From: Myxococcota bacterium
GTDB lineage: Bacteria > Myxococcota_A > UBA796 > CAJQPC01
NCBI GenBank assembly: GCA_036229005.1
Contig: JAZAMN010000055.1
Span: forward strand, 1 to 49,516
Length of the DNA stretch: 49,516 nt
Reading direction: 5' to 3'
The position numbers and the translations under genes are program-made. The notes below the pieces were generated by a model that worked only from the letters and a program-made list of their open reading frames with translations, made no database searches and was not told the DNA's origin. Positions 10,487-44,443 of the stretch are shown in pieces. Numbering within the stretch: position 1 is the first letter of the stretch; each line of letters begins with the position of its first letter.

Positions 10487-11710
10487 ATGCTCTCTGCCCT
10501 CTCGATGTTCGTCGCCTGCAGCCTGTCCTCGCCGGAGCCCAGCCAGCCCCCTGCGCAGTCGGACAAGCACCTGATCGTGATCGTGGTGGACACGACCCGT
10601 GCGGACCTCCTCGCAGCCGCTTCCACCCCGAACATCGACGCGCTGGCGGCCAAGGGGCAGGTGGTGGAGCGGGCCTGGTCGGCGGGGACCTGGACGGTGC
10701 CGGGGGTCACCTCGCTGATGAACGGGCACGCGGTGCGGGCGCACGGGTGGGACCTGGGGAGCGCGCGGATCGGCCGCTACCCGGCGCTGCCGGAGGTGCC
10801 CATGCTGGCCGAGGTGCTGGACGCCGAGGGCTTTGCGACCGTGGGGCTGCACGCGAACCCCTACCTGTCAGAGGCGCTGGGCTTTGACCGGGGCTTTGAC
10901 ACCTGGCGGCGGGTCTCGGACAAGACCATGGCCAAGGAGCTGAGCAAGAAGCTCGCGGCCACCGACCCCCAGGCGCGGCACTTTGTGTACCTGCACTACA
11001 TCGGGCCCCACAGCCCGCTGCACCCCAGCGAGGAGGCCCAGGCGCGCCACGAGCTGGACCCCAGGTGGTTTCAGTCGGGGCGCATGGGCATGGAGATCGG
11101 GGTGGCCAAGCGCAACCAGGAGCCGGGGGCACGGGAGGCCTACCGCGCCGGGTACATCGCCGCGCTGGAGGACACGGACGCCCGCATCGGCGAGGCCCTG
11201 GAGGTGCTGGCGCCTCTGCTGGACGACGCGGTGGTGATCCTGACTTCGGACCACGGGGAGCTGCTGGGGGAGCACGGGCGGGTGGGCCACGGCTGGTACG
11301 TGCACGAGCCGCTGACCTGGGTGCCCTTCGTGGCGACGGGGGTGGATCAGGCGCTGCCCGCGCACATGAGTACGGCCGCTCTGCCGGCGATCGCTGTCCG
11401 AGAGCTTGGGATCAACGCCGAGTTTCCGGTCAAGCCCAGCTCGTTGGTCGCCTCCCAGCGGGAGGGCAAGCTGGCGCTGACGGACGGCCGCTACAAGGGC
11501 GAGTGGGACGAGAAGGGGGCGGCCTATTTCGACCTGGACAACGACCCGCTGGCGCTGCAGCCGCTGACGGTGGACCCGGGCATGGAGGCCCTGCGGGCGC
11601 GCTATCTGGAGCAGACCCCCCAGGCCGCGCCGCTGGAGCTGCAGGTGCAGCTTCCCAAAGAGACGCAGGAGCAGCTCCAGGCGCTGGGCTACCAGGAGGG
11701 CGCGCACTGA
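10487..11710 (+). CDS. Sulfatase-like (alkaline phosphatase superfamily) lipoprotein, Thr at the nucleophile position
   Basis: VVDTTRAD, WTVPG, HYIGPHSP, SDHGE, GHG, LQALGY; MFVAC lipobox. Confidence 0.85.
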   Translation: MLSALSMFVACSLSSPEPSQPPAQSDKHLIVIVVDTTRADLLAAASTPNIDALAAKGQVVERAWSAGTWTVPGVTSLMNGHAVRAHGWDLGSARIGRYPALPEVPMLAEVLDAEGFATVGLHANPYLSEALGFDRGFDTWRRVSDKTMAKELSKKLAATDPQARHFVYLHYIGPHSPLHPSEEAQARHELDPRWFQSGRMGMEIGVAKRNQEPGAREAYRAGYIAALEDTDARIGEALEVLAPLLDDAVVILTSDHGELLGEHGRVGHGWYVHEPLTWVPFVATGVDQALPAHMSTAALPAIAVRELGINAEFPVKPSSLVASQREGKLALTDGRYKGEWDEKGAAYFDLDNDPLALQPLTVDPGMEALRARYLEQTPQAAPLELQVQLPKETQEQLQALGYQEGAH

Positions 11711-11747
11711 GCGCCGCATGAATGGACCGTGACGGGCCTACCGGGGC

Positions 11748-12548
11748 ATGGACTTCGCCCTCAATCAGGTCACGCTGGCCCCGCGCCCCTTCCTCGAGTT
11801 CCTCGACATCGCCGCTGAGCTGGGCTGCGTCGGGGTGGAGCCGCGCAACGACCTGGGCCGCCCCCTCTTTGACGGGCTGAGCCCGCGCGAGGCTGGGGCC
11901 CAGGCGGCGCGGCGGGGGCTGCGCTTTCTGAGCCTCAACCAGGTCTGGCCCTTCGACCGCTGGTCCCCCGAGCGGGCCCGGGAGCTGGAGCGGCTGATCG
12001 CGCAGGCGCAGGCCGCCGGGGCCGAGGGGGTGAGCCTGATCCCCGACATCGAGAGCCCCATGCAGACCCGGAGCGAGCGGGTGGCGCACCTGACGCGGGC
12101 GCTGGAGCGCACCCTGCCGAGCCTGGAGCGGGCGGGGCTGGTCGGCTTCGTGGAGGCCTTGGGCTTCCCGCGGGCCTCGATCCGCGCGCCGGACGAGGTG
12201 GAGCAGGCCATCCGGTCCCTGGGCGCGGGCGGGCGCCTGAGGCTGGTCCACGACACCTTCCAGCACCGGGTCTCCGGGCTGGGGGGGCCCATCGCGGCGT
12301 GCACGGGGCTGGTGCAGGCCTCCTCGGTGACCTCGACGCAGGGGACACTCAGCGCAGAGCTGGACCCCCACCGGGGCCTGATCGGTGAGGACGACGCGGT
12401 GGACAACGCAGGACAGCTCCGCACCCTCTGGGAGCAGGGCTACCGCGGGCCGGTCTGCTTCGAGTGCACGGACGCGCGCGTCCAGTCCCTGCCAGACCCC
12501 GTGCGGGCCATCGGGGAGAGCATGGAGCGGCTGCGCGGCTGCGTCTGA
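11748..12548 (+). CDS. Sugar phosphate isomerase/epimerase TIM-barrel protein (IolI-like)
   Basis: FALNQ, GVEPRNDL, VEALGF, VHDTFQH, GYRGPVCFE. Confidence 0.8.
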   Translation: MDFALNQVTLAPRPFLEFLDIAAELGCVGVEPRNDLGRPLFDGLSPREAGAQAARRGLRFLSLNQVWPFDRWSPERARELERLIAQAQAAGAEGVSLIPDIESPMQTRSERVAHLTRALERTLPSLERAGLVGFVEALGFPRASIRAPDEVEQAIRSLGAGGRLRLVHDTFQHRVSGLGGPIAACTGLVQASSVTSTQGTLSAELDPHRGLIGEDDAVDNAGQLRTLWEQGYRGPVCFECTDARVQSLPDPVRAIGESMERLRGCV

Positions 12549-12579
12549 GGGCGGCTAAGGTGCCCGCCTGGAGGACTCC

Positions 12580-13410
12580 ATGCTGCTGCTGCTGTTGGCC
12601 CTGGCCTGCAAGGGCGATGCGCCCCCCGACACCGACCCCGCGGAGACCGGCGAGACCGGCGAGGTGAGCGCCCGGGCCGGCTTCTGCGCCCCCGAGCAGC
12701 GGATCGGCAGCGTCCGCGTCGAGCGCTACGGGGACGGGGCGGTCAGCAGCTTCACGGTGCAGATCCAGGACACACCCCACCCGCTGGCCGCGCCCGCCGT
12801 CCTGGAGACCGAGGCCTGCAGCTACCACGAGTACACCCCGGGCTTCTGCGACGGCGGCTGCGGCGCCCAGCAGCTCTGCAGCCCGGAGGGTGTCTGCGAG
12901 GACACGCCCCGGAACCTCAAGGGCCTGGAGCTCACCCTGTGGGCGGACGGCGTGGAGAGCACCCACCAGGCCAACGACCAGGGGCTGATCTTCGGCCAGC
13001 TCGGCGCGGAGACGCGCTTTGTGTTCAAGGTCTCCGGGGAGGGCGTGGACCTTGAGAGCTCGGAGCTGGCGTTGCCCACCGCTCTGGCCGCTGAGGTGGT
13101 CTCCGCGGGCGACTACGACGCCCCCGGCGCCTTGAGCGTGAGCTGGGAGGGCACCAGCGAGGCCACCGTCCACACGGACATCCCCATCAACCACCACGCC
13201 GCCAGCCAGACCTTCACGGGCTGCCAGGCGCCGGCCAGCGCGGGGGGCTTCCAGGTGCCCGCCGAGATGGTGGACCCCCTGGCGGTGCACACGGGCCTGG
13301 AGTTCCAGGGCCTGGAGTTCGGCAGCTACGAGGCCATCGAGACCCCGCAGGGCTGCGTGCAGGTGTCGGTGCTGACGCACGCCTACGTGGACGTGACGTT
13401 CAGCCCCTGA
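12580..13410 (+). CDS. Hypothetical lipoprotein with short Cys-rich module
   Basis: GGAGG RBS, MLLLLLALAC, DT/ETG linker, C-x9-C-x3-C-x5-C-x5-C cluster, host-like codon usage. Confidence 0.75.
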   Translation: MLLLLLALACKGDAPPDTDPAETGETGEVSARAGFCAPEQRIGSVRVERYGDGAVSSFTVQIQDTPHPLAAPAVLETEACSYHEYTPGFCDGGCGAQQLCSPEGVCEDTPRNLKGLELTLWADGVESTHQANDQGLIFGQLGAETRFVFKVSGEGVDLESSELALPTALAAEVVSAGDYDAPGALSVSWEGTSEATVHTDIPINHHAASQTFTGCQAPASAGGFQVPAEMVDPLAVHTGLEFQGLEFGSYEAIETPQGCVQVSVLTHAYVDVTFSP

Positions 13411-13416: not shown

Positions 13417-13944
13417 CTACTCGATGCTGTAGTTGCCGTTTGCGTCGCGCACGTACTTCTGGTCGGCCTCCAGGGCGGGGAACTCCAGGGCCTGGATGAT
13501 TGCGCCATCGGCGTCCAGGATGTGCACGGTCTCGCCGTCGCCGGAGAGCTTGAAGTTGGCGTGCAGGTCGCCCTGCTCGGGCTCGTCGTCGCACCAGATC
13601 CGCAGGGTGGCGCCGGGGGCCAGGGACTGCCCGCTGGGTACGGGCCAGGGCTCCTCGACCTCGTAGTCGTCGGTCAGGCTCCAGCCCTCCAGGGAGACCT
13701 CCGCGTCGCCGACGTTCTCCAGGACCAGTCAGTCGTCGTTGTCGCCGTTCTCGTCGGTCTCCAGGCTGTCGTTCTTGGCGACCAGCTCGGAGATGACGAT
13801 CTGGCCTTGGGCGGCGCTGCCGGTGTCTTCGCTGCCGGTGTCGTCGGCGGTGTCCTGGGCGCTGGTGTCGGCGCTGTCGGTGTCGGCGGGCTTGGCGCAG
13901 GCGGCCAGCAGGAGCAGGGCGGAGAGGGAGAGGAGGTGACGCAT
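13417..13944 (-). pseudogene. Lamin-tail-domain (LTD) lipoprotein interrupted by one in-frame TGA at 13729-13731
   Basis: LLLAAC lipobox, then IVISELVAKN...NDD*LVLENVGDAEVSLEGWSLTDD...LAPGATLRIWCD...HANFKLSGDGETVHI...TAG at 13417, all in one frame. The TGA sits at the conserved Trp of the LTD D-W-x-x-L motif. Confidence 0.85.
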
Positions 13945-13947: not shown

Positions 13948-14994
13948 TCAGTCCACGATCAGGGGGTCAAGGTCGAAGACGCCTCGCATGGAGACGCCTA
14001 GCTGCAGGCCCACCACCCAGGCTGCCGTGTCTACGCCAGGGGTGGAGGAGGCCGTGTCGGTGGCGAGGAGGTATTCGGCGGTGGCCAGCACGCTCCAGGG
14101 GCTGTCCCGCGGCGCCACGCCCCCGGCGACCAGGAGCTGGCTGCTGTGTCCACCCTGGAGCTCCCGGAGCTGGCTGCCGCGCAGGACCACGACGGGGAGC
14201 TGACCGGGGGTGGCGCTGGCCCATCCGGCGAGCACCCAGGGCTCTCGGGTGGCGTCCCCGGCCACACCCCAGGCGCGGATGGCGCTGGCGCCGGCGCCGA
14301 AGCTGGGGCTGCGGTAGCTGGCGCGGGCGCCCAGGCGGTGGTCCCGGGCGGAGGCCACCCCGACGCTGCCCTGGCGGGCCAGGAGGTCGACGCGCAGGTC
14401 CTGATCGGCCAGGGGGCGGGCGCTCACGTAGAGGCTCACGGACTGGCCGGCGTTGCGCTCGCGCCAGCGGGCGCCCTCGCCGGTGGTCCCCATCAGGGTG
14501 ACCTCGACGGTGCGGGAGGGTGCGACCCAGGTGGCGCCCACGCCGGCGTCCGAGCGGTTGAGGACCGATGTGGTCTGCACCCAGGGCTTGCTCACGATCC
14601 GGTACCCGAAGCGCTGGTTCTCCATCAGGACCCAGGGGACGTCGATCAGCCCGGCGAAGGCGGTGATCCCCAGCTTGGGCAGGGCGACGCGGGCCTCGGC
14701 GATCTGGAGCTCGGGGACGTAGGCCTCGCCGTTGATGCCCAGGTAGCCGCCGTCCGGGGCGCTGCGGGCCTCGGTGAAGGCGACGCGGGCGCTGGCGGCG
14801 CCCGAGGACAGGCCGCCCTCGATGCGCATCCGGTTGAACTGGAGCTGGGTGGGCAGCGCCGCGTCGGGGCCCTGGACGATGCCGCGGCCGGAGATCTGGG
14901 CCTGGGCGAAGGCGCAGTGGCCCTGGGCCTCGGAGCCCAGCTCGTAGGTGACGGGGTTGCTGGCCAGGAAGGCGGCGCAGAGGACGGGGTTCAT
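13948..14994 (-). CDS. Outer-membrane beta-barrel / porin-like protein
   Basis: Alternating amphipathic strands, FNRMRIEG, RSDAGVG, GTTGEG; ATGA overlap with the upstream DUF2252 gene. Confidence 0.65.
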   Translation of the reverse strand: MNPVLCAAFLASNPVTYELGSEAQGHCAFAQAQISGRGIVQGPDAALPTQLQFNRMRIEGGLSSGAASARVAFTEARSAPDGGYLGINGEAYVPELQIAEARVALPKLGITAFAGLIDVPWVLMENQRFGYRIVSKPWVQTTSVLNRSDAGVGATWVAPSRTVEVTLMGTTGEGARWRERNAGQSVSLYVSARPLADQDLRVDLLARQGSVGVASARDHRLGARASYRSPSFGAGASAIRAWGVAGDATREPWVLAGWASATPGQLPVVVLRGSQLRELQGGHSSQLLVAGGVAPRDSPWSVLATAEYLLATDTASSTPGVDTAAWVVGLQLGVSMRGVFDLDPLIVD

Positions 14995-16307
14995 GGGATG
15001 CGCTCCGCGCCCAGCAGGGCGCTGTCGTCGACCAGGAGCAGGAAGGCCTGGTGGTCGGCCTCCAGGGTCTGCAGGTCGGAGGCGGCGATGGCGGCCAGCT
15101 CAGCGGGGTCGGGGGCCTGCCAGCTCACGGGGTCCCCGGTGGAGGTCCCGCCGCGCAGGTGGGCGGCGCCCAAGGCGTGCCCCAGGGTGAAGCCCAGGTC
15201 GATGAGATCCTGGGGTTGCAGCTCGCCTTCTGCCCAGGCCTCGGCCACCTTCTCGTGGTCGAAGGTCTGGAAATAGGAGCCCGCAGAGGTGAGCTTGAAC
15301 GCCAGGTTTCCCTGGAGGGTCGCGTCGGCGTAGCGCTCGGTCTGGGACCAGAGGGCCTGCCCCGCCGTCACCCGCTCGGCGTTGTCCTGGAAGAGGGGGG
15401 AGGGAGGTCCCGCGGCGGCCAGCAGGGGGGGATCCCACACCTCCCGGACCTGGAGCAGCAGGTCGTCATCGGGTCCGGGCTGGCCGGTGTCGGCGAGGAG
15501 CTGGAAGCGCGCGGCGGGCAGGCTGGCGATGCCCGAGCCCCAGCGGCGACAGACCGCGAGCAGGCGGGTGTCGGCGGGGAGCAGCGCGTCGGCGACGGCC
15601 TGGACGCGGGCCAGCTCGGCGTCGGTGGCGGGGAGCATGCCGCGGCCCAGCTCGTCCAGGTCCTCGTCCAGGCGGAAGCGGCGCTCGGTCTCGTCCAGAT
15701 GCACCGGCGCGCGGTCGTCCAGGCGCTTGCGCTCCAGGCCCTCTTCGGCCGCCTCTTCGAGCAGATCCAGGGTGATGGGGCCGTAGGCGGGGGCCTCTGC
15801 GGCGAGCCCGGCGGCGTAGCCCTCGGCCATGGCCTTCACGGCGTCCTGGGTGCAGTCGCAGCCCTCCAGGGGGTCCAGCATCGCGGCCAGACCCAGGGCA
15901 CCCCGGCGCAGGTCCAGGGTCCAGGGGCCCCAGCCCACCGCGTCGAGGTCCACCCACTCCAGCGACAGGGTGACCTCGTCTGCGGACGCCGGCATCTCAC
16001 CGATCAGGAGGGTCCCCAGGTTCTCGGGGTGGGGATCGCCGACCACGAGCACCTGGGTTGCCTCCTGCTCCAGGACCCCGGCGGTCTGCTGGGCCCCGCC
16101 TGCGCGGGAGACGTCTGCGTAGAACCACCCGGCCGTGCCCCGCATGAAATCGTAGCGGTCCAGGGCCATGCGGTTGTACTTTTGGGCCAGGGCCTGGGGC
16201 TCGCGGGCCTCGTAGATGCGGTTCTCGCGGATCAGCTGGGCCTGCAGCAGCGCGCTGCGGGCATCGCTGGAGCTGGGGGCCGCGCAGGCGAGCAGGAGGG
16301 GGAGCAC
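14991..16307 (-). CDS. DUF2252-family (kinase-like fold) protein with lipoprotein signal
   Basis: KYNRM...DFMRGT..WFY, GDPHPENLG, VDLD, LDLRR, GSGIASL...R, HLRG; N-terminus VLPLLLAC. Confidence 0.8.
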   Translation of the reverse strand: MLPLLLACAAPSSSDARSALLQAQLIRENRIYEAREPQALAQKYNRMALDRYDFMRGTAGWFYADVSRAGGAQQTAGVLEQEATQVLVVGDPHPENLGTLLIGEMPASADEVTLSLEWVDLDAVGWGPWTLDLRRGALGLAAMLDPLEGCDCTQDAVKAMAEGYAAGLAAEAPAYGPITLDLLEEAAEEGLERKRLDDRAPVHLDETERRFRLDEDLDELGRGMLPATDAELARVQAVADALLPADTRLLAVCRRWGSGIASLPAARFQLLADTGQPGPDDDLLLQVREVWDPPLLAAAGPPSPLFQDNAERVTAGQALWSQTERYADATLQGNLAFKLTSAGSYFQTFDHEKVAEAWAEGELQPQDLIDLGFTLGHALGAAHLRGGTSTGDPVSWQAPDPAELAAIAASDLQTLEADHQAFLLLVDDSALLGAERIP

Positions 16308-16410: not shown

Positions 16411-17655
16411 TCAGGGGGCGATCACGGTCAGCTCCAGGCCGTACATGGGGGCGATGGTGTCCAGGATGCGCTGGGCGTCCGCCGAGCCTTCGGGGGCCCG
16501 GATGTCGCGCCAGACCACGTTGCTGTTGAGCCAGGCCTTGTTGGAGAAGTGCCACTGGGCGAAGCCGGCGACCTCGTCCAGCAGGCGCTGATCGGCGCCG
16601 CCGTCGGGGAGGCTGTCCAGGTGGGCCCAGTGCGCGCCCAGCTCCAGCTTGTTCCAGCGGTAGGAGGCCAGGGCGGTGGTGCCCCAGGCGTCGCCATCGG
16701 GGTTGTAGGCCAGGGGGTTGCCGGCGAAGGGGGGCGAGAAGCCGGTGGTGAGCATGCCGGCTGCGTAGATGAACTCGCCGCGCAGGCGCAGGCCCGAGTG
16801 GATGAGCTGGGCGCCGCCGCCGGCGCGGGTGCGCTGGGCCTGGGTGCCGTCCCAGACGGGGCGCGTGCCGGTGACGCCCCAAGCCCAGACTGCGGCCTCC
16901 TGGCGGGTGGGGCTGCGGGCGGGGCCGTCGTCGAGCTGCCAGGCGAGCTGGACGCGGGCGCTGACATCCTTGCCGGGGTTGTTGTCGCCAAAGCGGGTGG
17001 TGCCGTTGCTGCCCTGGACCAGCCAGGTGAGCTCCAGAGGCCCGGGATTGTGGATGCCGAAGACCTGCACGCCCACGTCGCGGAAGCCGTTGGCCCGCCC
17101 GGTCCAGGTGGCGGCGTCCGAGGAGGTCTCGCGCTCCAGCAGCAGCCTGCGGGTCACCACGCTGAACTGGAGCAGGTCGGCGGACATGTGGACGGCCTCC
17201 AGGACCGCGTCCGAGGTCGGGGTCTTGAACTGCCCCACCCGCACGTGCACGCTGCCCGGCGAGCGCCAGGTGATGCTGGCGTCCATCAGGGCGGGGCGCC
17301 ACTGGCCGCCTGCGGTGGTCACGCCGTTCTGGCCCAGCTCCACGGCGGCGAAGGTGTTGAAGGCGGTCCCGGGGATCTGCCCGCGCACGCCCACGCGCAC
17401 CCGGCGCAGGTTCAGGGCGCTGGGCTGGCCCTGGTTGCCCACGGTGTTGAAGACCGCGAGCTCGCCATTGTAGGGCTGCAGCTTGTCGGCCTCCAGGCCG
17501 GTCACGGGCTGCGCGTAGACGCCCTCACCGAGCACCTGCACAAAGCCCCAGGCCCGCAGGCCGGCCTTGTCCGGGTCGCTGGGCTCCAGGTTCTGCAGGG
17601 CCACCCAGTTGGCGGCCTGGGCGCTGCTGGAGAGTGCCATCAGCAGGGCGATCAC
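16411..17655 (-). CDS. Outer-membrane porin, phosphate-selective porin O/P-like
   Basis: Signal peptide ending AQA; LRRVRVGVRG, DASIT, RVGQFKTP, RDVGVQVFG, DNNPGKD; GTGA overlap with tsdA. Confidence 0.8.
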   Translation of the reverse strand: MIALLMALSSSAQAANWVALQNLEPSDPDKAGLRAWGFVQVLGEGVYAQPVTGLEADKLQPYNGELAVFNTVGNQGQPSALNLRRVRVGVRGQIPGTAFNTFAAVELGQNGVTTAGGQWRPALMDASITWRSPGSVHVRVGQFKTPTSDAVLEAVHMSADLLQFSVVTRRLLLERETSSDAATWTGRANGFRDVGVQVFGIHNPGPLELTWLVQGSNGTTRFGDNNPGKDVSARVQLAWQLDDGPARSPTRQEAAVWAWGVTGTRPVWDGTQAQRTRAGGGAQLIHSGLRLRGEFIYAAGMLTTGFSPPFAGNPLAYNPDGDAWGTTALASYRWNKLELGAHWAHLDSLPDGGADQRLLDEVAGFAQWHFSNKAWLNSNVVWRDIRAPEGSADAQRILDTIAPMYGLELTVIAP

Positions 17656-18572
17656 CGGGCCCCCAGGCGCTGGCCGTCCACGCTCTCGCCGTAGTGGCAG
17701 TCGTGGTTGTGGAACTCGGCGTCGGTGGCCTGGATGCCCTTGGCGTCGCGGGGGTCGCCGGGCCGCGGCTTGGCGTTGATGTAAGAGGCCACGTCCCAGG
17801 CCTCCTGCTCGCTGAGGGTCTTGGGCTGGCCCAGGGGCATGTTGGCCCAGATGAAGCCCGCGGCGGTGTTCACGCGGTGCATGCCCGCGCCCCAGTTGTA
17901 GGAGTCGGGGCCCCAGAGCGGCGGCAGGATGACCTCGCCGTCGGGACCGGTCTTGCCCTGTCCGTCCGCCCCGTGGCAGGTCGCGCAGCGGGCGGTGTAG
18001 ACCTCAGCTCCGTGGGCCACGCTCACCTCCTCTGGCCTGTCGAGCTTGGGGAAGCCCTGGCCCTTCATGTGGGCCTCTCCGGTGGGGGCGCCGGTGGCCA
18101 GCCAGTAGGCGTAGGCCTCCAGATCGACGATGACCTGGCTGCCGGGCTCGGGGGCGCTGCCGTGCTCGGAGGCCTGGCCGTTCATGGAGTAGGTGAAGCA
18201 GCCGCGCAGGCGCTCGTCGAAGTCGTTGACGTGCTTGTTCTTGCCTCGGTACGCGGGGTAGCGCACCCAGGCGGCCCACATGGGAGCGGCGTCGGCGCGG
18301 CGGCCGTCGTCGATGTGGCAGTTGGCGCAGGTCAGGCTGTTGCCGGAGTACTCCGGGGCGTTGTCCTGGACGTTGTGGAAGATGGCCTCGCCGCGGCGCA
18401 CGGCCTCACCGAACTCGCCGTCGGGGTAGGCGTCCCGGGCGGGGGGGACGTGGGTGTCGGCGGTGTCCGGCTGGGCGGTCTGGGCGGGGGCTTCGGGCTG
18501 CTCGGTTGCGGTGGATTCGGGTGCGGCGGGGGGCTGGGGGGCCTGGGCGCAGGCCAGCAGCAGGGCGATCAC
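17652..18572 (-). CDS. tsdA: Thiosulfate dehydrogenase / tetrathionate reductase, diheme cytochrome c, lipoprotein form
   Basis: CANCH and CATCH; TsdA signature RLRGCFTYSMNG, PPLWG, SYNWGAGM, FIWANMPLG; GTGA overlap with tsdB. Confidence 0.9.
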   Translation of the reverse strand: MIALLLACAQAPQPPAAPESTATEQPEAPAQTAQPDTADTHVPPARDAYPDGEFGEAVRRGEAIFHNVQDNAPEYSGNSLTCANCHIDDGRRADAAPMWAAWVRYPAYRGKNKHVNDFDERLRGCFTYSMNGQASEHGSAPEPGSQVIVDLEAYAYWLATGAPTGEAHMKGQGFPKLDRPEEVSVAHGAEVYTARCATCHGADGQGKTGPDGEVILPPLWGPDSYNWGAGMHRVNTAAGFIWANMPLGQPKTLSEQEAWDVASYINAKPRPGDPRDAKGIQATDAEFHNHDCHYGESVDGQRLGAR

Positions 18573-25620: not shown

Positions 25621-26141
25621 CAGCTCTCGATCAGCGCCACGAACCAGATCTCGCGGGGGCTGTCCTCGTCGAAGCGGAGGACGTAGCTGCCCCAGGCGTG
25701 GAAGGCGTAGCGGTTGTCGTGGATCTCGGTGTCCGGGCAGGCGCCGGCCCGTCGGATGCCGGTGAGCTCCTCGGCGTCGACGTGGTCGATGCTGTAGGTG
25801 GCCTGCTCGTCGGCGAAGAAGCGGATGGTGCTCATCCACTCGGGGACCTCGACCGTGAGGTAGCCGGGGCCGCTCTCAGGCAGCTCCAGGCGGTGGACCA
25901 GGGTGTCTCCGGAGGGCACGATCAGGGCCTGACCGGCCTCGGCTTCGGACCCAGCGATCACCATGGCCTCGCCCGTCTCCTCGAAGAGGCCGCACGCCTG
26001 CTGGGAGAAGGCGTCGTCGACCCCATCGGGCAGCTCGCGGCGGGGGAGCTCCTCGGGGGCGGTGTCCAGGACCTGGGTGTCCTGGGGCTCGGAGCTATCG
26101 GGGGCGGTGCAGGCCAAGGCCAGGAGCAGGGCGTTGATCAT
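25620..26141 (-). CDS. Hypothetical lipoprotein (173 aa)
   Basis: MINALLLALAC; ATGA and TGATG coupling on both sides; two further Cys and three Trp. Confidence 0.8.
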   Translation of the reverse strand: MINALLLALACTAPDSSEPQDTQVLDTAPEELPRRELPDGVDDAFSQQACGLFEETGEAMVIAGSEAEAGQALIVPSGDTLVHRLELPESGPGYLTVEVPEWMSTIRFFADEQATYSIDHVDAEELTGIRRAGACPDTEIHDNRYAFHAWGSYVLRFDEDSPREIWFVALIES

Positions 26142-32382: not shown

Positions 32383-32386
32383 GTTC

Positions 32387-36030: not shown

Positions 36031-36602
36031 TGCGCGTCTCCGCTTGGGGGCATCTCGTCCAGGCGCAGCTGCAGCTTTGCGGGGCTGCCGGCCGCGTCGT
36101 AGTAGCTGTCAAAGACCAGTTTGAAAGTCTGCTCTGGTGTCCGCACCACGTAGACCCGCTCCTTGGGGGTCAGGCTGTGGTCGTCCACGTCGTAGTCGTA
36201 CCACTCGTCGAACACGCGGTCGGGCTCGGTGTCCTCGTCGTCGCCATCGGGTGCGTCCTGGGCCCAGCCGGAGGCGGGCAGGTCCTCCCAAGCCAGAGCG
36301 GTGAAGTCGGCCCCCTCGATGTAGGTGGCCTCCACCTCTCCCTCTCCCGAGACCCCGCCGTCCAGCTCCACCAGGTAGCGCTGGAAGCGCAGATCCCAAC
36401 CCTCCAGGGACTCCCCGGGCGCGCCCAGGGTGAGGGTGTCCAGGTCCAGGGGGACCCACAGCGTGTAGTCGGTGGCGTCGATCTTGAGGGCGGTCGGCCC
36501 CTCGGTGGCCTGGGTGTCGTCCAGCGCCAGCGAGCCCGTGTCCCAGGTGTTCATGGACTCCGAGAGGTCCGGCAGGCAGGCGAGCAGGGTCAGCAGGATC
36601 AC
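36027..36602 (-). CDS. hmuY: HmuY-family lipoprotein
   Basis: IDATDY..WV.LDL, WDLRFQRY..LDGGVSG.G, WYDYD..DHSLTPK..VYVVRT, SYYDAAG; GTGA overlap with the receptor. Confidence 0.85.
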   Translation of the reverse strand: MILLTLLACLPDLSESMNTWDTGSLALDDTQATEGPTALKIDATDYTLWVPLDLDTLTLGAPGESLEGWDLRFQRYLVELDGGVSGEGEVEATYIEGADFTALAWEDLPASGWAQDAPDGDDEDTEPDRVFDEWYDYDVDDHSLTPKERVYVVRTPEQTFKLVFDSYYDAAGSPAKLQLRLDEMPPSGDAQ

Positions 36603-38458
36603 GCGCCCCTCCAGTGTCCGTCGATGCTCAGGACCACCTCGCGGGGGCGGATCAGCACCAGCCCGCTGGGGTCCTGGGTGTTGAGCAGGTTCTCGCAGCC
36701 CAGCCGGAAGCGCATGTCCTGCGGTCCCTGCCACATCAGCCACGCGTCCCACTGGGTGTAGGGGGCGGCGAGGGGGAGGTCGGTGCCCACAGTCCGGGCC
36801 CCAACCCAGCGCATCTGGGTGCCCAGGTCCACCGCAGGGACCGGGGTCCAAGCGAGGCGCGTCGTGGCGCTGTGGCGGGGGCGGCCCGGCAGTGCCTCGC
36901 CGGTGGAGAGATCCAGCGTGTGGTTGAAGGTGTAGCTGGTGTCGGCGGTGAGGGCGCCCAGCTCGAGCACCGCGGCCACCTCGCTCCCCGAGCTGCGTGC
37001 CTGGTCGATGTTCACGTACTGGTAGACCGTCGCCGTGCTGGTCTGCTCTCCGGGGCCGACGCCGATCAGGTCGTCGATCTCGGTGAACCAGCCGGCGGCG
37101 CTCAGGGTCAGGGGGCCCAGGCCCTGGCGCAGCTCCAGGTCCACGCCCTGGGAGGTCTCGGGGCCCAGCTCCGGGTTGCCCTCGACGCGGTAGCCGGAGC
37201 TGGGGTTGGAGAAGCGCAGGAGCTGCTCGGAGAAGCTGGGCGCGCGGAAGCCCTGGCCGTAGCTGACCCGGAGCTGGGGGCCCTGGGTGGGGGCCCACAT
37301 CAGCGAGAGCTTGGGCGCGAGCTTGCGGCCGAACTGGCTGTCCAGCTCCCAGCGGGCGGCGGGGATCACCAGCAGGGTGGCGGTGGGCCGGTACTCAAGC
37401 TGGGCGAAGGGCGCGATCCGGACGCGGCTGCCGACGCTGTCCAGGCGGTCGGCGTCCAGGCGCTGGGCCAGGGTGTCCGTGCCCACGCTGAGCACGCCGA
37501 TCGCGGTGGAGCGCTCGTGCAGCAGGGAGAGCTCCCCCAGGTCTTCGCGGGAGCGCTCGTAGACGTCCAGGGCGCTGGACTTGCGCTGGTCCACTGCGTA
37601 TTGATCCAGGTAGAAGCTGTAGCTTCCGTGGATCGTGTTCAGCGCCCGGGGGGTGCTCCAGCTCAGGGAGGCTTGGTTCACCAGGGTCTCGGTGGCCACG
37701 CGACGGTCCAGGATGGCCCCGCCGTTCCCGGCGTCGATGCCGTGGATCAGGCGCGCGGTGTAGGCCGAGCGGGCGTCCAGCGTGAACTGGTCCTGGGGGC
37801 TCAGGTGGGCGCTCAGCGCCAGCTCCCCCTGGTGGAAGCCCTCCAGGGTGGTGAAGCCCTCATCGTCGCTGATGGGCGCGGCGCCGTGGTAGCCGGCCTC
37901 GGCCTTGAGCCCCAGGTCCCCGATCCCCCCGCCGAGCATCACGCTGGCGTCCGCCGTCGGTGCGCCCTGCTCCAGGGTGTGGCCCACGGCGAGCTGGCCG
38001 CCCACGCTGGGCACGGGCTCGGCCTTGCGGGTGGTGATGCGCACCACGCCGCCCATGGCCTCCGACCCGTAGAGCGCGGACTGGGGGCCCTTGATGACCT
38101 CGACGGACTCGACCTCCTCCAGGGGGATGCGGGAGAGGTCGACCGCGCCGCCCACCTGACCGCCCAGGCGCTGGCCGTCGACCAGGATCAGCGTGTGCTG
38201 GGGGTCCAGGCCGCGCAGGGAGATCTCGGTCCCCCGGTAGTTGTCCTGCACCTGCACGCCCGGGAGGGTGTCCAGCGCCTCCCCCAGGTTCTGCGCGCCC
38301 ATCGCCTGGAGCTGCTCGGCGTCCAGGACCAGGATGCGGCTGGCGACCTGATCCCCGACGCGCTGGCTGCGGGGAGCGGTGACGGTCAAGACCTCCCCGG
38401 ACTCGTCCGGCGGCGGAGGGTCTGGCTCGGCGACGAGCAGCGGCAGGAGGGGAATCAC
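36599..38458 (-). CDS. TonB-dependent outer-membrane receptor (heme, by context)
   Basis: TonB-box-like EVLTVTA, plug ISLRGLDPQHTLILVDG, VEVIKGPQSALYGSEAMGGVV, GFRAPS, GNPELGPE, ENLLN. No clear FRAP/NPNL His was checked. Confidence 0.93.
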   Translation of the reverse strand: MIPLLPLLVAEPDPPPPDESGEVLTVTAPRSQRVGDQVASRILVLDAEQLQAMGAQNLGEALDTLPGVQVQDNYRGTEISLRGLDPQHTLILVDGQRLGGQVGGAVDLSRIPLEEVESVEVIKGPQSALYGSEAMGGVVRITTRKAEPVPSVGGQLAVGHTLEQGAPTADASVMLGGGIGDLGLKAEAGYHGAAPISDDEGFTTLEGFHQGELALSAHLSPQDQFTLDARSAYTARLIHGIDAGNGGAILDRRVATETLVNQASLSWSTPRALNTIHGSYSFYLDQYAVDQRKSSALDVYERSREDLGELSLLHERSTAIGVLSVGTDTLAQRLDADRLDSVGSRVRIAPFAQLEYRPTATLLVIPAARWELDSQFGRKLAPKLSLMWAPTQGPQLRVSYGQGFRAPSFSEQLLRFSNPSSGYRVEGNPELGPETSQGVDLELRQGLGPLTLSAAGWFTEIDDLIGVGPGEQTSTATVYQYVNIDQARSSGSEVAAVLELGALTADTSYTFNHTLDLSTGEALPGRPRHSATTRLAWTPVPAVDLGTQMRWVGARTVGTDLPLAAPYTQWDAWLMWQGPQDMRFRLGCENLLNTQDPSGLVLIRPREVVLSIDGHWRGA

Positions 38459-38466
38459 GGTGCAAG

Positions 38467-38601: not shown

Positions 38602-41600
38602 GTGTCCATTCTGCTGCTTCTCTCTTCGCTCTCGCTGCTGGGCTGCAAGGACCGCAGGGCCGTCACGGACACCGCTGATGTGCTCAAGGTGGACAACGAC
38701 GCGGACGGCTTCACGGAGGAGGAGGGGGACTGCAACGACGGCGTGGCCGCGATCAACCCGGCGGCGGGGGAGTCCTGCGACTACCTGGACAACGACTGCG
38801 ACGGCGTCGTGGACGAGGACACCACGGCGGAGTGGTTCCTGGACGGCGACGGGGACGGCTACGGGGATCCAGAGGGATCGGCTGTCACTTGTGAACAACC
38901 TCTGGGGTACATCTCCCGGGGTGGGGACTGCGATGACGGCGACGGCAGCAGGAGCCCGGGCATCGACGAGGTCTGCGATGGCGTGGATCAGGACTGTGAT
39001 GACCTCGTCGACGAGGGGGTGCTGACCGAGTGGTTCGCGGACCTGGATGGGGACGGTATGGGCGACCCGGAGACGGGCACCCAGGCCTGCTCGGCCCCCG
39101 CGGAGCACGTGGACAACGACTTTGACTGCGATGACGGGGACGCCCAGGTCAACGAGCTGGCCCTGGACGGCTGCGATGGGGTGGACAACGACTGCGACGG
39201 CGCGGTGGACGAGGCCCCGGACGTGCTCTGGTACCGCGACGCCGACAGCGACGGGGCGGGCGACAGCGAGGACTCGGTGGCCTCGTGCGAGCAGCCCAGC
39301 GGGTACGTGGGGGCGGGCGAGGCCTTTGACTGCGACGACGACAACGTGACCGTGGGCGCGGGGGCCTACGAGTACTGCGACGGCGTGGACAACGACTGCG
39401 ACGGGGAGGCCGACGAGGCTGACGCCCTGGACGCGGGCACCTGGTATGACGACCTGGACGGGGACGGCTACGGCGACGACAGCACGGCCCAGGCGGCCTG
39501 CGAGCAACCCAGTGGCACGGTGGATGTGGGCGGGGACTGCGCGGACAGCGACGGCAGCCTGAGCCCCGAGACCCTGTGGTACGCGGACAGCGACGGGGAC
39601 GGCTACGGCGACGCGGCGACACCCACGGCGAGCTGCACGCAGCCCAGCGGCTATGTGGCCGATGACAGCGACTTCGACGACAGCGACGCGGCGGCCTGGC
39701 CCGGCGCCACCGAGCTCTGCGATGGCGTGGACAACGACGGGGACGGGGAGGTCGATGAGGCCGACGCCGCCGACGTGAGCACCTTCTATCTGGACTACGA
39801 TGGGGACGGATACGGGCGGGCCGGGACCACCACCACGGGCTGCTCGGCGCCCTCCGGCTACGTCGCGGACAGCAGCGACTGCGAGGACACCGACGCGGCG
39901 ATCAACCCCGGCGCCCTGGAGCTCTGCGACGGCGACGACAACGACTGCGACGGCAGCACCGACGAGAGCGACGCCGCCGACGCCAGCACCTGGTACGCGG
40001 ACAGCGACCTGGACGGCTACGGCGACGCGGCCACCAGCCAGACCGCCTGCACGGCGCCCAGCGGCTACGTCTCGGACGCCTCCGACTGCGACGACGCGGC
40101 CGCCGCCGTGAACCCCGGCGAGGCGGAGATCTGCGATGCCGTCGACAACGACTGCGACGGCAGCACCGACGAGTCCGACGCCAGCGACGCGGACACCTGG
40201 TACCTGGACAGCGACGGGGACGGCTACGGGCGCAGCACCACCAGCACGACGAGCTGCAGCCAGCCCAGCGGCTACGAGGCCAGCTCCACCGACTGCGACG
40301 ACGGCGACAGCGCCATCCACCCGGCCGCCAGCGAGGTCTGCGACGGCGCCGACAACGACTGCGACGGGGAGACGGACGAGTCCGACGCCACCGATGTGAG
40401 CACCTGGTACCTGGACAGCGACGGGGACGGCTACGGCGACGCCAGCGACAGCCTGGACGCCTGCGATCAACCCAGCGGCTACGTGGCCGACAACACCGAC
40501 TCCGACGACGAGAGCGCCGAGACCCACCCCGGCGCCAGCGAGGTCTGCGACGGCCTGGACAATGACGGCGACTCCAACATCGACGAGTCCGCCAGCGACA
40601 TGGGCACCTGGTATGTCGACGCGGACAGCGACGGCTACGGCGACCCGGCCACCAGCACCACCGCCTGCGACGCCCCCAGCGGCTACGTGGCCGACAACAC
40701 CGACTGCGACGACGGCGACGCGGTCGCCTACCCCGGCGCCACCGAGTACTGCGACGACACCGACAACGACTGCGACGGCACCATCGACGGCGTCGCGTCG
40801 GTGGACCTGAGCACCTGGTACTACGACCGCGACGGGGACGGCTACGGGCGCTCCGACACCACGGCCGATGCCTGCGATCAGCCCAGCGGCTACGTCTCGG
40901 ACTCCACCGACTGCGACGACGACAACGCAGACGTGAACCCCGGCGCGACCGAGGTCTGCGACGACCACGACGTGGATGAGGACTGCAACGGCTATGCGGA
41001 CGACGACGACAGCGGCGTGACCGGCCTGCTGACCTTCTACGACGACGGCGACGGCGACGGCTACGGCGACAGCACCCTGACCACCAGCGCCTGCGAGGCC
41101 CCCAGCGGCTACGTGGATGTGGACGGGGACTGCGACGCCTACGACAGCAGCGTGCACCCCGGCGCGACCGAGATCTGCGACGACGGCATCGACAACGACT
41201 GCGACGGCAGCGGCGGGAGCTGCGGCCTGGGCGGGAGCGACCTTCTGGTCTCCGATGCGGTGGCCAGCATCAACGGCACGGTGGTCGGCGGCAGCTTCTC
41301 CTACACCGGCAGCCACGTCCTGTTCCTGGATGACATGGACAGCGACGGCTACGACGAGCTGGTGGTCTCCAGCGAGGTCAACGGGGGCTACTACCGGGGC
41401 CGCGTCTACATCTTCGACGGGCCCCTCAGCGGCGCGCTCAGCTCCGAGGGCGACGCAAACACCCTGCTCGCGGCCGTCGGGTCCCACGGCTACTTCGGCA
41501 CCGAGCTTGGGGGCGGAGACGTCGACGGCGACGGGGTGAGCGACCTGTTGGTGGGCGCGCCCTACTACAACAACAGCGCCGGCAGCGACGGCACCGTGTT

Positions 41601-42567
41601 CATCTACTACGGGCCCCCCGCGGACGGCTCGGAGGCCGACGCCGATCTGGTGGTCCAGAACGACAGCACCAGCGTGAACATGGACCAGGTCGCGGTGGGG
41701 GACGTGGACGGCGACGGCAACGCGGACCTGGTGCTGGGCGCCTGGGGCGACTCCAGCGACCCCGGCGATGTCTACCTCTTCCTGGGCCCGGTGACCGCGG
41801 ATCTGGTGGCCGGCACCGACGACGACACCCACTGGGACGGCGGCGTCGCCGCAGACTACGCGGGCGCCGATGTGGCCCTGGCAGACGTCAACGGAGACGG
41901 CCTGGACGACCTCTGGGTGGGCGCCCCCCGCGACGACGATCTCGCGTCCCAGGGCGGCAGCGCGATGCTCGTCCACGGGCCCGCCAGCGTGGGCTTCACC
42001 TGGGGCCCCACCAGCGCGGCGGCCTACGTCCGCGGGACCACCTCCAGCGGCTACCTGGGCGAGTTCCTGGGCAGCGCCGGGGACTTCAACGGCGACGGCT
42101 ACGAAGACCTGCTGCTTGGCGCCCCCGGGGCCGGAACCGAGGGTGGCGGCGAGCTCAACATCTTCTACGGCCCCATCACCGGCACCCTGCGGGCCAGCCA
42201 CGCCGAGGTGTCCATCAACGGCGAGCACGGCTCCGACGAGCTCGGCAGCGCCAGCGCGGTCGACGACATCGACGGGGACGGCAACATGGACCTCGCCGTG
42301 GGTGCCCTCTACATCAGCACCTGCTCCGGCAGCACCTGTCGCGGGCGCGCCCACATCTACTACGGGCCCATCACGGGCAGCTACAGCACCACCGACTCGG
42401 ACGGCACGGTCGGCTACGCCGGCAGCGGCAGCAACAACTTCGGCAGGGCCCTGGACCTTGGCGACTCCGACGGCGACGGCTACCCCGACCTGGCCGTCGG
42501 CGCGTACTCGGACACCTCCGGCGGCGGCTCTGGCATGACCTACCTCTTCGCGGGCAGCGGCATCTGA
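38602..42567 (+). CDS. Large surface lipoprotein: 13 MopE-type Cys/Asp repeats + C-terminal FG-GAP (integrin-alpha-like) propeller
   Basis: LLGC lipobox; repeats WY.D.DGDGYG...C..PSGYV....DCDD...PGA.E.CDG.DNDCDG; about seven D.DGDG..DL.VGAP blades; GTG 38602 after GGAG. Confidence 0.92.
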   Translation: MSILLLLSSLSLLGCKDRRAVTDTADVLKVDNDADGFTEEEGDCNDGVAAINPAAGESCDYLDNDCDGVVDEDTTAEWFLDGDGDGYGDPEGSAVTCEQPLGYISRGGDCDDGDGSRSPGIDEVCDGVDQDCDDLVDEGVLTEWFADLDGDGMGDPETGTQACSAPAEHVDNDFDCDDGDAQVNELALDGCDGVDNDCDGAVDEAPDVLWYRDADSDGAGDSEDSVASCEQPSGYVGAGEAFDCDDDNVTVGAGAYEYCDGVDNDCDGEADEADALDAGTWYDDLDGDGYGDDSTAQAACEQPSGTVDVGGDCADSDGSLSPETLWYADSDGDGYGDAATPTASCTQPSGYVADDSDFDDSDAAAWPGATELCDGVDNDGDGEVDEADAADVSTFYLDYDGDGYGRAGTTTTGCSAPSGYVADSSDCEDTDAAINPGALELCDGDDNDCDGSTDESDAADASTWYADSDLDGYGDAATSQTACTAPSGYVSDASDCDDAAAAVNPGEAEICDAVDNDCDGSTDESDASDADTWYLDSDGDGYGRSTTSTTSCSQPSGYEASSTDCDDGDSAIHPAASEVCDGADNDCDGETDESDATDVSTWYLDSDGDGYGDASDSLDACDQPSGYVADNTDSDDESAETHPGASEVCDGLDNDGDSNIDESASDMGTWYVDADSDGYGDPATSTTACDAPSGYVADNTDCDDGDAVAYPGATEYCDDTDNDCDGTIDGVASVDLSTWYYDRDGDGYGRSDTTADACDQPSGYVSDSTDCDDDNADVNPGATEVCDDHDVDEDCNGYADDDDSGVTGLLTFYDDGDGDGYGDSTLTTSACEAPSGYVDVDGDCDAYDSSVHPGATEICDDGIDNDCDGSGGSCGLGGSDLLVSDAVASINGTVVGGSFSYTGSHVLFLDDMDSDGYDELVVSSEVNGGYYRGRVYIFDGPLSGALSSEGDANTLLAAVGSHGYFGTELGGGDVDGDGVSDLLVGAPYYNNSAGSDGTVFIYYGPPADGSEADADLVVQNDSTSVNMDQVAVGDVDGDGNADLVLGAWGDSSDPGDVYLFLGPVTADLVAGTDDDTHWDGGVAADYAGADVALADVNGDGLDDLWVGAPRDDDLASQGGSAMLVHGPASVGFTWGPTSAAAYVRGTTSSGYLGEFLGSAGDFNGDGYEDLLLGAPGAGTEGGGELNIFYGPITGTLRASHAEVSINGEHGSDELGSASAVDDIDGDGNMDLAVGALYISTCSGSTCRGRAHIYYGPITGSYSTTDSDGTVGYAGSGSNNFGRALDLGDSDGDGYPDLAVGAYSDTSGGGSGMTYLFAGSGI

Positions 42568-42599
42568 GCCTGCCGGCGCTGCGGGCTCCGCGCGGGGTT

Positions 42600-43067
42600 A
42601 TGGACGCTGGCATGTGGTCCGCTCTGCTACACGACCCCGACCCCACTCTGCCCACGCTGGACTGGCAGGCCCTGGCCACGCCCCCCGCCCCCGGGGAGCC
42701 CTACGGTCGCCGAATCCTGCACGCCGAGCCCGCTGGGGAGTGGCTGCTGATGTGCTGGGCGCCGGGCATCCCGACGGTGCCTCACGACCACGGGGGGGCA
42801 GAGGGGCGGATCTGGGTGCTGCAGGGCAGGCTCCTGGAACACCACCTGAGCACCTCGCTTGCGGTCACAGCGCAGAGATCTGCGGGCGCCGGCGAGGTCA
42901 TGACGGTGCAGACGGACACCATCCACCGGGTCACAGCCGCTCCTCACACCCTCTCCCTGCACTGCTACAAGCCTCTGGCCCAGCGGGGGATGCGCGCGTT
43001 CACCGAGCAGGGCGTGGTCCTCTTGCCGGCCGGACACGGCGCCTGGCTGCCCCTGGAGGCCCCGTGA
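42600..43067 (+). CDS. Cysteine dioxygenase-family cupin
   Basis: YGR..L, W.PG..T.PHDHG, IHRV, LSLHCY; start may be 42612. Confidence 0.8.
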   Translation: MDAGMWSALLHDPDPTLPTLDWQALATPPAPGEPYGRRILHAEPAGEWLLMCWAPGIPTVPHDHGGAEGRIWVLQGRLLEHHLSTSLAVTAQRSAGAGEVMTVQTDTIHRVTAAPHTLSLHCYKPLAQRGMRAFTEQGVVLLPAGHGAWLPLEAP

Positions 43068-44443
43068 TCTGGCTGCTGCTCGGCTGCGCGGACCCGCCCC
43101 CGCCGCCCCCGGTCGCGGAGAGCACCGAGACCGTCATCGTGGTCGTGGGCTGCACCCTGCGGGCCGACCGGACCAGCGTCTACGGAAACCCCCGCCAGAC
43201 CACGCCCTACCTGCAGGAGCTCGCCGATCAGGGCGTGGTGTTCGAGGACATGGTCTCCAACGCGCCCTGGACGCGCCCGGCCATCGCGAGCCTGATCTCG
43301 GGGCTCTACCCGGGGCGCCTGGGCATCGACGATGAGCGCGGCGAGCTGAACACCAACCGGGGCCTGCACCCGGACGTGGTGACCCTGGCGGAGCGCTTCT
43401 CGGAGGCGGGCTGGAGCACGGTGGGGGCCACGGCGAACCCCAACGCGAACGCCTACTTCCAGATGGACCAGGGCTTCGCGGAGTACCACGAGGCCAGCGG
43501 GCTCTGGCGCGAGGGCTACGCCAAGGTCGACGGAGAGACCCTGGTCCGGGACTGGGCCAAGCTGGCCGCGCAGGTGGAGGGGCCGCTCTACGGGCAGCTC
43601 GTGGTGGTCGACACGCACAAGCCCCTGGGGAGGGGGACGAGGCACCCGGCTGGCTGGGGCTTGCGGGTCTTCCTCTCGCCCTCTGGGGTGGACCGCTACG
43701 ATGCAGCGCTGGGGCTCTTCGACGAGGTGCTGCGGGGCCTGGACGCCGCCCTGGCCGAGATGGGGCGCTCGGATCGCCTGCTGGTGGTGGTGGGCGACCA
43801 CGGGGAGGGGCTGTCTGACCCCGACTGGGCTGGGCACGCGCACGGCCGCTACCTCTACGACGCCAACCTGCGGGTGCCCTGGGTGATGCACGGCGCGGGG
43901 GTGCAGCCGGGCACGCGGGTGGACGGGCTGGTGGAGTCCATCGACCTGCACCCGACCCTGCTGGAGCTCGCGGGGCTGCCGGACCCGGGGGTGGATGGGC
44001 GCAGCCTGGCCGCGCAGGCGCGGGGGGAGTCGGAGCAGAGCGGCAAGGAGCTGGGCTTCTCGGAGACCTTCTTTGCCTCGGACCACCGGATGCGCGCCTC
44101 GACCCCGGAGTGGGTCTACATCCAGAACGACCAGGGCGCGCGGGATCGGGGCGAGCACGAGCTCTACGCGGCCGCCGACCGCCAGCAGTCCGAGAACCTG
44201 GCGCTGCTGGAGCCCGGGGTCGTCGAGGCGCTCTCCGGGCGGGTGGAGACCCTGGCGCAGGGCGTGCACAGCGAGCGCCTGGTCCTGGATCTGGACGAAG
44301 ACCTGGACGACGAGCTGCGCGGGCGCCTGGAGGCCCTGGGCTACATCGAGGACCCGGCGCTGCCCGAGGGCAAGCCGCCACCCCCGGAGCTGAGGCCGGA
44401 CCCTGGCGCGCTCAGGCCTCCGGGGGCGCCGCCGGCACCCTGA
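43064..44443 (+). CDS. Sulfatase-like lipoprotein, Thr at the nucleophile position
   Basis: GTGA overlap; VIWLLLGC; TLRAD, APWTRPAIASLISG, DTH.P, GDHGE, HG..LY, LEALGY. Confidence 0.87.
   Translation: MIWLLLGCADPPPPPPVAESTETVIVVVGCTLRADRTSVYGNPRQTTPYLQELADQGVVFEDMVSNAPWTRPAIASLISGLYPGRLGIDDERGELNTNRGLHPDVVTLAERFSEAGWSTVGATANPNANAYFQMDQGFAEYHEASGLWREGYAKVDGETLVRDWAKLAAQVEGPLYGQLVVVDTHKPLGRGTRHPAGWGLRVFLSPSGVDRYDAALGLFDEVLRGLDAALAEMGRSDRLLVVVGDHGEGLSDPDWAGHAHGRYLYDANLRVPWVMHGAGVQPGTRVDGLVESIDLHPTLLELAGLPDPGVDGRSLAAQARGESEQSGKELGFSETFFASDHRMRASTPEWVYIQNDQGARDRGEHELYAAADRQQSENLALLEPGVVEALSGRVETLAQGVHSERLVLDLDEDLDDELRGRLEALGYIEDPALPEGKPPPPELRPDPGALRPPGAPPAP

Follow-up and report, generated by a model that had tools for sequence, protein, structure and literature searches.

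The window analysed here is the whole of a 49,516-nucleotide contig (GenBank JAZAMN010000055.1; C55 in our numbering) of a Myxococcota bacterium (assembly GCA_036229005.1; GTDB lineage Bacteria; Myxococcota_A; UBA796; CAJQPC01). The genome, designated G000, is a metagenome-assembled genome (MAG) of 6.4 Mb, 70% GC and 94% completeness with 5243 called genes. By the textbook rule, a signal peptide has a tripartite n-h-c organization with a basic N-terminus. Ten leaders in the window, singled out in a first-pass annotation as ultra-short lipoprotein signals, were found where it had placed them, each with a lipobox Cys at residue 8–11 and none (0/10) with a Lys or Arg before it. Such short uncharged leaders are a genuine, genome-wide feature of G000, and within the phylum they occur mainly in a single order.

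On the forward strand, a sulfatase (10487..11710) begins with MLSALSMFVA-C (Cys11; leader at 10487-10519) three codons after an in-frame stop, a protein without a Pfam family (12580..13410) begins with MLLLLLALA-C (Cys10) behind a GGAGG and a stop seven codons upstream, and a second sulfatase (43064..44443) has the GTG-initiated leader VIWLLLG-C (Cys8) with GGAGG and GTGA coupling. The reverse strand carries a DUF2252 protein (14991..16307; GTG, VLPLLLA-C, Cys8; stop three codons upstream, TA at -12), a dihaem SoxA/TsdA-type cytochrome c (17652..18572; GTG, VIALLLA-C, Cys8; GGAGG, GTGA coupling, stop four codons upstream), a dihaem cytochrome c peroxidase (CCP) of the CCP_MauG family (24481..25620; MLALWLA-C, Cys8; TGATG coupling), a second protein for which no Pfam family was matched (25620..26141; MINALLLALA-C, Cys11; ATGA coupling), a TSP3-repeat/AhpC-TSA protein (26138..26848; MLWLMLA-C, Cys8; ATG with GGAGG), and two HmuY-family proteins (35047..36030; MTLPLMMLLA-C, Cys11; Shine-Dalgarno (SD) sequence, ATGA coupling; and 36027..36602; GTG, VILLTLLA-C, Cys9; GGAGG, GTGA coupling). 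The Pfam matches agree with the passenger names given previously, including those of a GDPD and a TonB receptor discussed below. The nearest named relative of the peroxidase is a protein of a Myxococcota bacterium (56%). The three coupled short-leader genes at 24481-26848 on the reverse strand (TSP3/AhpC-TSA, the protein without a Pfam family and CCP_MauG) constitute a single operon that may serve redox or metal functions in the periplasm.

Half of the ten starts are forced, in that an upstream in-frame stop is reached without any ATG, GTG or TTG in between; the open stretch measures 3 codons at 10487, 3 at 16307, 4 at 18572, 7 at 12580 and 26 at 36030. The genes starting at 25620, 36602 and 43064 have longer open frames, yet no ATG, GTG or TTG occurs in the 25 upstream codons, and they overlap the stop of the upstream gene. 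Only the genes at 26848 and 26141 have upstream alternatives, both weaker: a TTG 16 codons upstream without an SD and a GTG 22 codons upstream inside the upstream gene, respectively. The claim that the starts are supported by coupling, a ribosome binding site or an upstream stop thus holds for the ten leaders, eight of which have no nearby upstream alternative. A codon-model gene caller that is blind to signal-peptide information chose the same start in all ten cases.

The genome-wide histogram of Cys position and n-region charge that had been proposed as a check reveals a large class of this kind. A lipobox-like Cys lies near the start in 784 of the 5243 called genes, and in 345 of these it falls at residue 13 or earlier even when the most upstream possible ATG, GTG or TTG is used; Lys or Arg is present in 6 of the 345. 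A second pipeline found 845 lipobox genes, of which 699 have a supported start and 146 were set aside. Among the 699, 512 are short (Cys 7-13) and 187 long, and 505 of the 512 short leaders contain no Lys or Arg, and hence no twin-arginine (Tat) motif. The histogram is bimodal (n=699), with 428 genes in the peak at Cys 8-11, a trough at 14-15 and a second peak at 16-20. The signal contains Lys or Arg in 0/114, 1/110, 0/130, 1/74 and 0/44 genes at Cys 8, 9, 10, 11 and 12, and in 13/18, 18/20, 20/22, 19/21 and 18/18 at Cys 16, 17, 18, 19 and 20. Because the lipobox filter bars charge in the five residues preceding the Cys, the absence of charge is partly built in at Cys 8, but not at Cys 11-12. 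A filter-free count still peaks at residues 8-11, with 146-195 Cys per position against a background of about 60, and in the 854 proteins with Cys at 8-13 position -1 is Ala, Gly or Ser in 78% and position -3 is Leu in 51%, unlike around Cys at 40-70. In the 345 forced-start leaders, position -1 is 83% Ala, 13% Gly and 4% Ser and position -3 is 68% Leu, percentages that are partly shaped by the filter. The short leaders have a mean Kyte-Doolittle hydropathy of 2.58, and their best 7-residue window averages 2.90 compared with 2.69 in long signals. The class is larger than chance would give: at called starts the short-lipobox rule fits 521 of 4534 proteins, at internal Met it fits 15 of 24957 (2.7 expected), and after shuffling of residues 2-30 (20 shuffles) it fits a mean of 6 and a maximum of 10.

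A canonical lipoprotein class, mostly with Cys at 15-24 and with Lys or Arg, coexists in G000. It includes Pal, whose signal has 18 residues and an Arg; the BamD signal has 16-17 residues and an Arg, and charged Pal and BamD signals occur in most of 30 genomes, G000 included. Both proteins were considered as test cases for short signals and rejected as canonical. In the window, a small lipoprotein (13729..13944, reverse strand) with a leader sequence of canonical type, 16 residues with Arg2, serves as an internal control. The lineage had been said to export proteins with minimal signals; the trait is indeed lineage-wide and affects signals of both the signal peptidase II (SPII, SPase II) and signal peptidase I (SPI, SPase I) types, but export does not rely on minimal signals only, as Pal, BamD and the 187 long leaders show. 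As a side observation, the BamD homologues of most members of the order and class (L041 on contig C7 of G000, and L042-L069) have an SPI-type signal without a lipobox Cys, and in them BamD is apparently no lipoprotein; a few genomes (G010, G086 and G008) keep a Cys.

Translation almost certainly begins at the short Met or its GTG equivalent. Among 656 short candidates, an SD is found in 370 (56%), with a GGAG peak at 9-12 nt upstream of the start, and 127 overlap an upstream stop; 231 have neither, and 58 of these 231 carry TAnnnT at 12-13 nt upstream. At internal starts, used as control, the frequencies are 16% for the SD and 2% for the TA box. The same TAnnnT precedes the start by 12-13 nt in 192 of 2396 unambiguous G000 genes. 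An in-frame stop 12 nt upstream is mostly the TA of this -10-like box, which would imply leaderless transcripts and suggests that leaderless mRNAs are common in the lineage. The 10487 sulfatase is a possible example: its in-frame stop belongs to TAGAAG (10475..10480, forward strand), an imperfect match 12 nt before the ATG from which a leaderless transcript may arise. The box occurs in 65 of 624 short-signal genes compared with 1 of 137 in the comparison set, an enrichment that carries no weight since start scoring rewards the box.

The first-pass annotation had raised the counter-explanation that true starts farther upstream provide the basic n-regions; such starts might use rare codons or depend on read-through of a stop. 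Upstream alternatives do exist for 26848, 26141 and the TonB receptor, and stops located exactly three codons upstream are TAG in 57 of 73 cases. However, 345 starts are forced, the positions of SD, -10 box and coupled stops all fit the short start, and the TAG excess at -12 is explained by the TA of the TAnnnT box. Same-genus orthologue pairs keep the short leader while the upstream sequence is unconserved, and a second Myxococcota CCP locus (L279) has the same 8-residue type of leader with a stop three codons upstream. We consider a start-calling artefact very improbable. Read-through or an altered code was rejected likewise: TAG ends 1025 of the 5243 called genes and is therefore a working stop.

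Leaders that lack an n-region are also found on proteins of the SPI type. In G000, 878 proteins start with a hydrophobic uncharged stretch. In 551 of them [AGS]C stands at 7-14, another 20 have long anchors, and 307 resemble n-less SPI signals; canonical SPI-like signals number 114, both SPI counts being based on rough rules. The n-less SPI leaders have an Ala-rich end, the last Ala (the anchor used for counting) lying mostly at residue 11-16. In the window, such leaders are seen on a porin-like beta-barrel protein (13948..14994, reverse; about 11 residues; SD and ATGA coupling; no Pfam match, porin-like in Atlas), a Porin_O_P protein (16411..17655, reverse; about 14 residues; GTGA coupling), a pectinacetylesterase-family protein (21110..22384, reverse; about 14 residues), the GDPD (23673..24473, forward; about 11 residues; SD) and a periplasmic binding protein (34203..35054, reverse; about 13 residues; SD). 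The proposal that non-lipoproteins follow the same trend thus stands for the porin at 14994 and the GDPD. It is doubtful for the TonB-dependent receptor (36599..38458, reverse), whose start at 38458 is open to question: initiation at a TTG 12 codons farther up would yield a 22-residue signal of canonical type, with Arg as its second residue. That both the SPI and SPII classes are affected points to the translocon they share.

Other features of the window touch on these genes. A MopE/FG-GAP repeat protein (38602..42567, forward), absent from the earlier list, has an uncharged 15-residue lipobox leader, with alternative TTG/GTG codons 15-16 codons upstream. The TonB receptor, the two hmuY genes, the binding protein, ABC genes and hemS follow one another in this order in a haem uptake cluster at 31363-38458 on the reverse strand. 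Directly upstream of it, at 38460-38490, is the AT-rich palindrome TGATAnnnnnTATCA, a putative operator that resembles those of iron regulators.

The trait was followed across the phylum by counting the exact 8-residue pattern M-h5-A-C in 301 genomes, 44 of them in the order. G000 has 56 matches and G001 90; at least 5 are found in 15 of the 44 in-order genomes and none in 11, whereas all 257 genomes outside the order have 0-4 each. In stretches of 42-100 kb sampled from each of 25 relatives (18 order members and 7 outgroups, genomes that are kin), 38 of the 110 lipobox genes with a supported start have short uncharged leaders in the order, against 1 of 32 in the outgroups, and for the lone outgroup case an upstream GTG gives an Arg-bearing signal. 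Longer n-less leaders do occur outside the order: 3 of the 32 outgroup lipobox leaders lack Lys and Arg, and one n-less SPI type is found in the class outgroup G297.

The proteins behind the short leaders are probably exported and lipidated, as judged from their composition and homologues. CxxCH occurs in 35 of 565 short-leader proteins and in 47 of 4647 others, and DxDxDG in 18% versus 4%; a downstream transmembrane segment is found in 6 of the 565. The passengers are acidic, and in the lipoproteins the Cys is followed by a polar tether rich in Pro and acidic residues. Among CCP-family loci, 19 of 66 were inspected. Where the N-terminus is readable, most have a basic signal of about 17-27 residues with a lipobox Cys at its end, and a few have an SPI-type signal or no clear one; homologues with canonical signals occur in Pyxidicoccus, Bacteroidota, Gemmatimonadota and Acidobacteriota. 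The sampled relatives provided 40 SPII and 14 SPI homologue pairs, some of them uninformative repeat-domain matches. Homologues in G022 (60%), G005 (56%) and the class outgroup G297 (57%) keep the Cys and have an added basic n-region, and a G022 homologue (41%) of the 10487 sulfatase has a 19-residue signal with Lys. In other lineages an ordinary basic signal precedes this lipobox Cys in the homologues, so the n-region was lost. A leader too short to span the membrane could instead indicate that the proteins, although translated as read, do not undergo Sec/SPII processing, remaining as uncleaved anchors, acylated on the cytoplasmic side or not exported at all. This is highly unlikely in view of the lipobox composition at -1 and -3, the positional homology of the Cys to that of canonical lipoproteins, and passengers such as c-type cytochromes, HmuY and porins, which must reach the periplasm or the outer membrane to function.

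G000 encodes one secA, one secY, one yidC, ffh, ftsY, lnt, lepB, two def, four lgt and two lspA genes, and has several S26 peptidase matches. The four Lgt, two LspA and S26 peptidase matches, together with the sharp division of signals into two classes, could mean that the short class has a route of its own, served by an Lgt/LspA paralogue pair, YidC or a targeting factor yet to be recognised. We regard such a dedicated component as unlikely: genomes rich in the trait, genomes poor in it and outgroups have similar numbers of paralogues (Lgt matches 3-7 in 30 of 30 genomes irrespective of trait strength, LspA 1-2), secA, secY and yidC are single, and SPI substrates are affected as well. Both LspA aspartate motifs of G000 align to those of E. 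coli, and the aligned Lgt copies keep R143, G154 and R239, whereas H103 is Tyr, Met or Asn, a departure also seen in outgroups; all four are functional positions of Lgt. Specialisation of Lgt or LspA was rejected because neither copy numbers nor motifs follow the trait, outgroups showing the same departures from the E. coli motifs, and an accessory SecA2/SecY2 system because the 94%-complete genome has a single secA and secY. Loss of deformylase, which would retain a neutral formyl-Met, was rejected too; with two def genes encoding HExDH motifs, there is no gene loss from which to argue that the formyl group is kept. SecA, compared pairwise with E. coli only, is 52% identical, with a shorter acidic loop at 289-294 and Gln for E708, and otherwise looks ordinary. 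The earlier suggestion of altered SecA, SecY, Lgt or LspA finds support in SecY, which has the order-specific changes described below; the additional targeting factor it offered as an alternative did not turn up, no systematic search for such factors having been made.

Several observations on these proteins stand apart. His103 of E. coli Lgt aligns to Tyr, Trp, Leu and other residues in nearly all Myxococcota copies, outgroups too, next to a conserved Cys-Cys motif. On contig C8 of G000 (68311-71830), lspA, a gene for a 495-aa membrane protein, lspA and lgt are clustered, and in genomes of the same genus the two lspA genes lie next to each other. In this class LspA has an insertion of about 15 residues that is absent from E. 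coli and G085. Two genomes of family f3 have weak partial second matches to the SecY profile in frames of about 400 aa (L248 on contig C5 of G197, E 4e-16; L249 on contig C32 of G095, E 2e-7), and in G095 a weak second SecY-profile match is about 5 kb from an lgt copy.

The SecY changes were identified by aligning 25 order members with 24 outgroups, namely E. coli and 23 class or phylum genomes (20 were picked out of 29 matches), over 344 columns; a search of solved structures did no more than confirm the protein as SecY. Two of the 344 columns show no overlap between the groups: I187, replaced by Ala or Ser, and E110, replaced by Gln or Arg, in 25/25 order members and 0/24 outgroups. In addition, F192 is Thr, Ser, Ala or Val in 25/25 order members and Thr in 1 of the 24 outgroups. 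PMC2171872 describes I187 as a fourth member of the isoleucine ring and lists G69, I191, I278, S282 and I408 among prlA sites; other sources place prl alleles in the ring, gate and plug (PMC3164448, PMC2585858 and PMC8082313), and ring substitutions often yield super-active translocons (PMC13537251). We tentatively suggest, at somewhat less than an even chance, that the SecY change is permissive for short signals; it can be at most permissive, since it is also present in trait-poor order members.

There is about an even chance, in our judgement, that signals consisting of an h-region only are exported by Sec and lipidated by Lgt and LspA through a relaxed, prl-like translocon. The leaders consist of 6-12 Leu-rich uncharged residues followed by a lipobox L-x-[AGS]-C or, in the SPI type, of about 11-16 residues with a probable A-x-A at the end. 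A peptide of this kind, its N-terminus possibly still formylated, would engage the lateral gate of SecY by hydrophobicity alone, with the acidic N-terminus of the mature protein supplying the N-in/C-out bias. SecA would then drive translocation, leaving a short helix in the outer leaflet whose Cys, exposed on the periplasmic side, could be processed by Lgt, LspA and Lnt as usual. The weakest step is the proposed order-wide loosening of SecY proofreading through I187 to Ala or Ser at the ring side, loss of the acidic E110 after TM2b, and F192 to Thr, Ser, Ala or Val. Following such loosening, n-regions may have eroded more in some genera than in others, the core envelope proteins retaining signals of canonical type. 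In its full form, which we put forward as doubtful yet worth stating, the order would run a naturally evolved, proofreading-relaxed SecY (I187A/S with E110Q/R) that accepts half-membrane, h-region-only signals with as few as 7 residues ahead of the lipidated Cys; about one tenth of the G000 proteome would be anchored in this way and some 300 more proteins exported through the SPI version, together a hidden surface proteome to which the n-h-c rule does not apply.

Several points weigh against a relaxed SecY. A 7-residue helix cannot span a bilayer. Under a looser rule, 15 of the 344 SecY columns are order-enriched, and at the four core positions of the ring (I86, I191, I278 and I408) the Ile is kept in 25/25 order members. 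The I187 and E110 changes are found in order members that score 0 for the 8-residue pattern (11 of the 44), and as the changes arose once, a single evolutionary event, no statistical test of the link is possible. A recent structure (PMC11186639) has four ring residues only, with Sec61 I179 merely nearby; by our own mapping I179 corresponds to SecY I187, which suggests that I187 is peripheral there. In a cell-free E. coli screen (PMC13537251), log2FC values were +0.47 for I187M, +0.28 for F192S and +1.31 for F192L compared with +2.45 for I191S, and neither I187A/S nor E110 variants were found among the supplement rows listed. Finally, no natural precedent was found: a literature search, the coverage of which left out most subscription journals, listed no description of such short uncharged signals. 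The passages available on a UBA796 MAG with a large secretome (PMC11495043) are silent on short signals.

Alternatively, the proteins may be exported and lipidated by an ordinary translocon, high Leu content, perhaps through signal recognition particle (SRP)-dependent or co-translational targeting, offsetting the lost charge; n-regions would have drifted off low-flux accessory proteins and the SecY changes would be incidental clade markers. PMC9360617 describes the h-region as essential and the basic N-terminus as improving efficiency, and the higher hydrophobicity of short signals, the charged signals kept by the core proteins Pal and BamD, the intact core ring, the presence of Ffh and FtsY, and the few n-less longer leaders outside the order are all in line with this view. 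Drift alone is nevertheless disfavoured because it should yield the short class outside the order too, where it is almost absent (1/32; 0-4 exact patterns per genome in 257) despite similar GC. We consider this explanation somewhat unlikely as a whole. On the single question of a relaxed SecY step or an ordinary translocon, the evidence is close to evenly balanced.

To our knowledge, other signals of this length exist only in constructs that were engineered or mutated. The G000 genome provides some 500 natural cases, matched pairs of long and short homologues and two candidate SecY residues; questions about minimal signals and proofreading become directly testable, and the order offers a natural test of the minimum size of a signal peptide. 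Secretome predictions for the order may be undercounts, and the short leaders suggest designs for minimal lipid-anchoring tags.

The leaders resemble canonical Sec/SPase II signals in their lipobox L-x-[AGS]-C, Leu-rich h-region, polar tether and full Lgt/LspA/Lnt set. They differ in that, in about 500 genes, they have no basic n-region and only 6-12 residues before the Cys, too short for a bilayer. Published accounts give lipoprotein signals an average of 16-26 residues and a basic n-region (PMC8689077) and the n-region a minimum of 2 and an average of about 4 residues (SignalP 6.0 preprint); by these n-region and length criteria the short leaders fall outside the canonical Sec/SPII family. 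The n-less SPI-type leaders share with canonical Sec/SPase I signals a hydrophobic core, a probable A-x-A and a polar mature start, but open directly with the h-region. In E. coli prlA, as in the order, changes in SecY accompany signals that look defective, and in the order an Ile that one source counts in the ring is replaced by a small or polar residue. The prl alleles, however, are laboratory mutants, mostly of I191, I278, I408 (all three intact in the order) or the plug; I187A/S and E110Q were not found among the tested alleles listed, and the SecY state of the order would be natural and order-wide. The leader of type IV prepilins (Sec/SPIII) is also very short and N-terminal, with the opposite anatomy. 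According to PMC9360617, prepilins are cleaved at the n-h border. The prepilin leader is the charged part, cut off before the hydrophobic stretch, whereas the G000 leader is the hydrophobic part only and ends in the lipobox.

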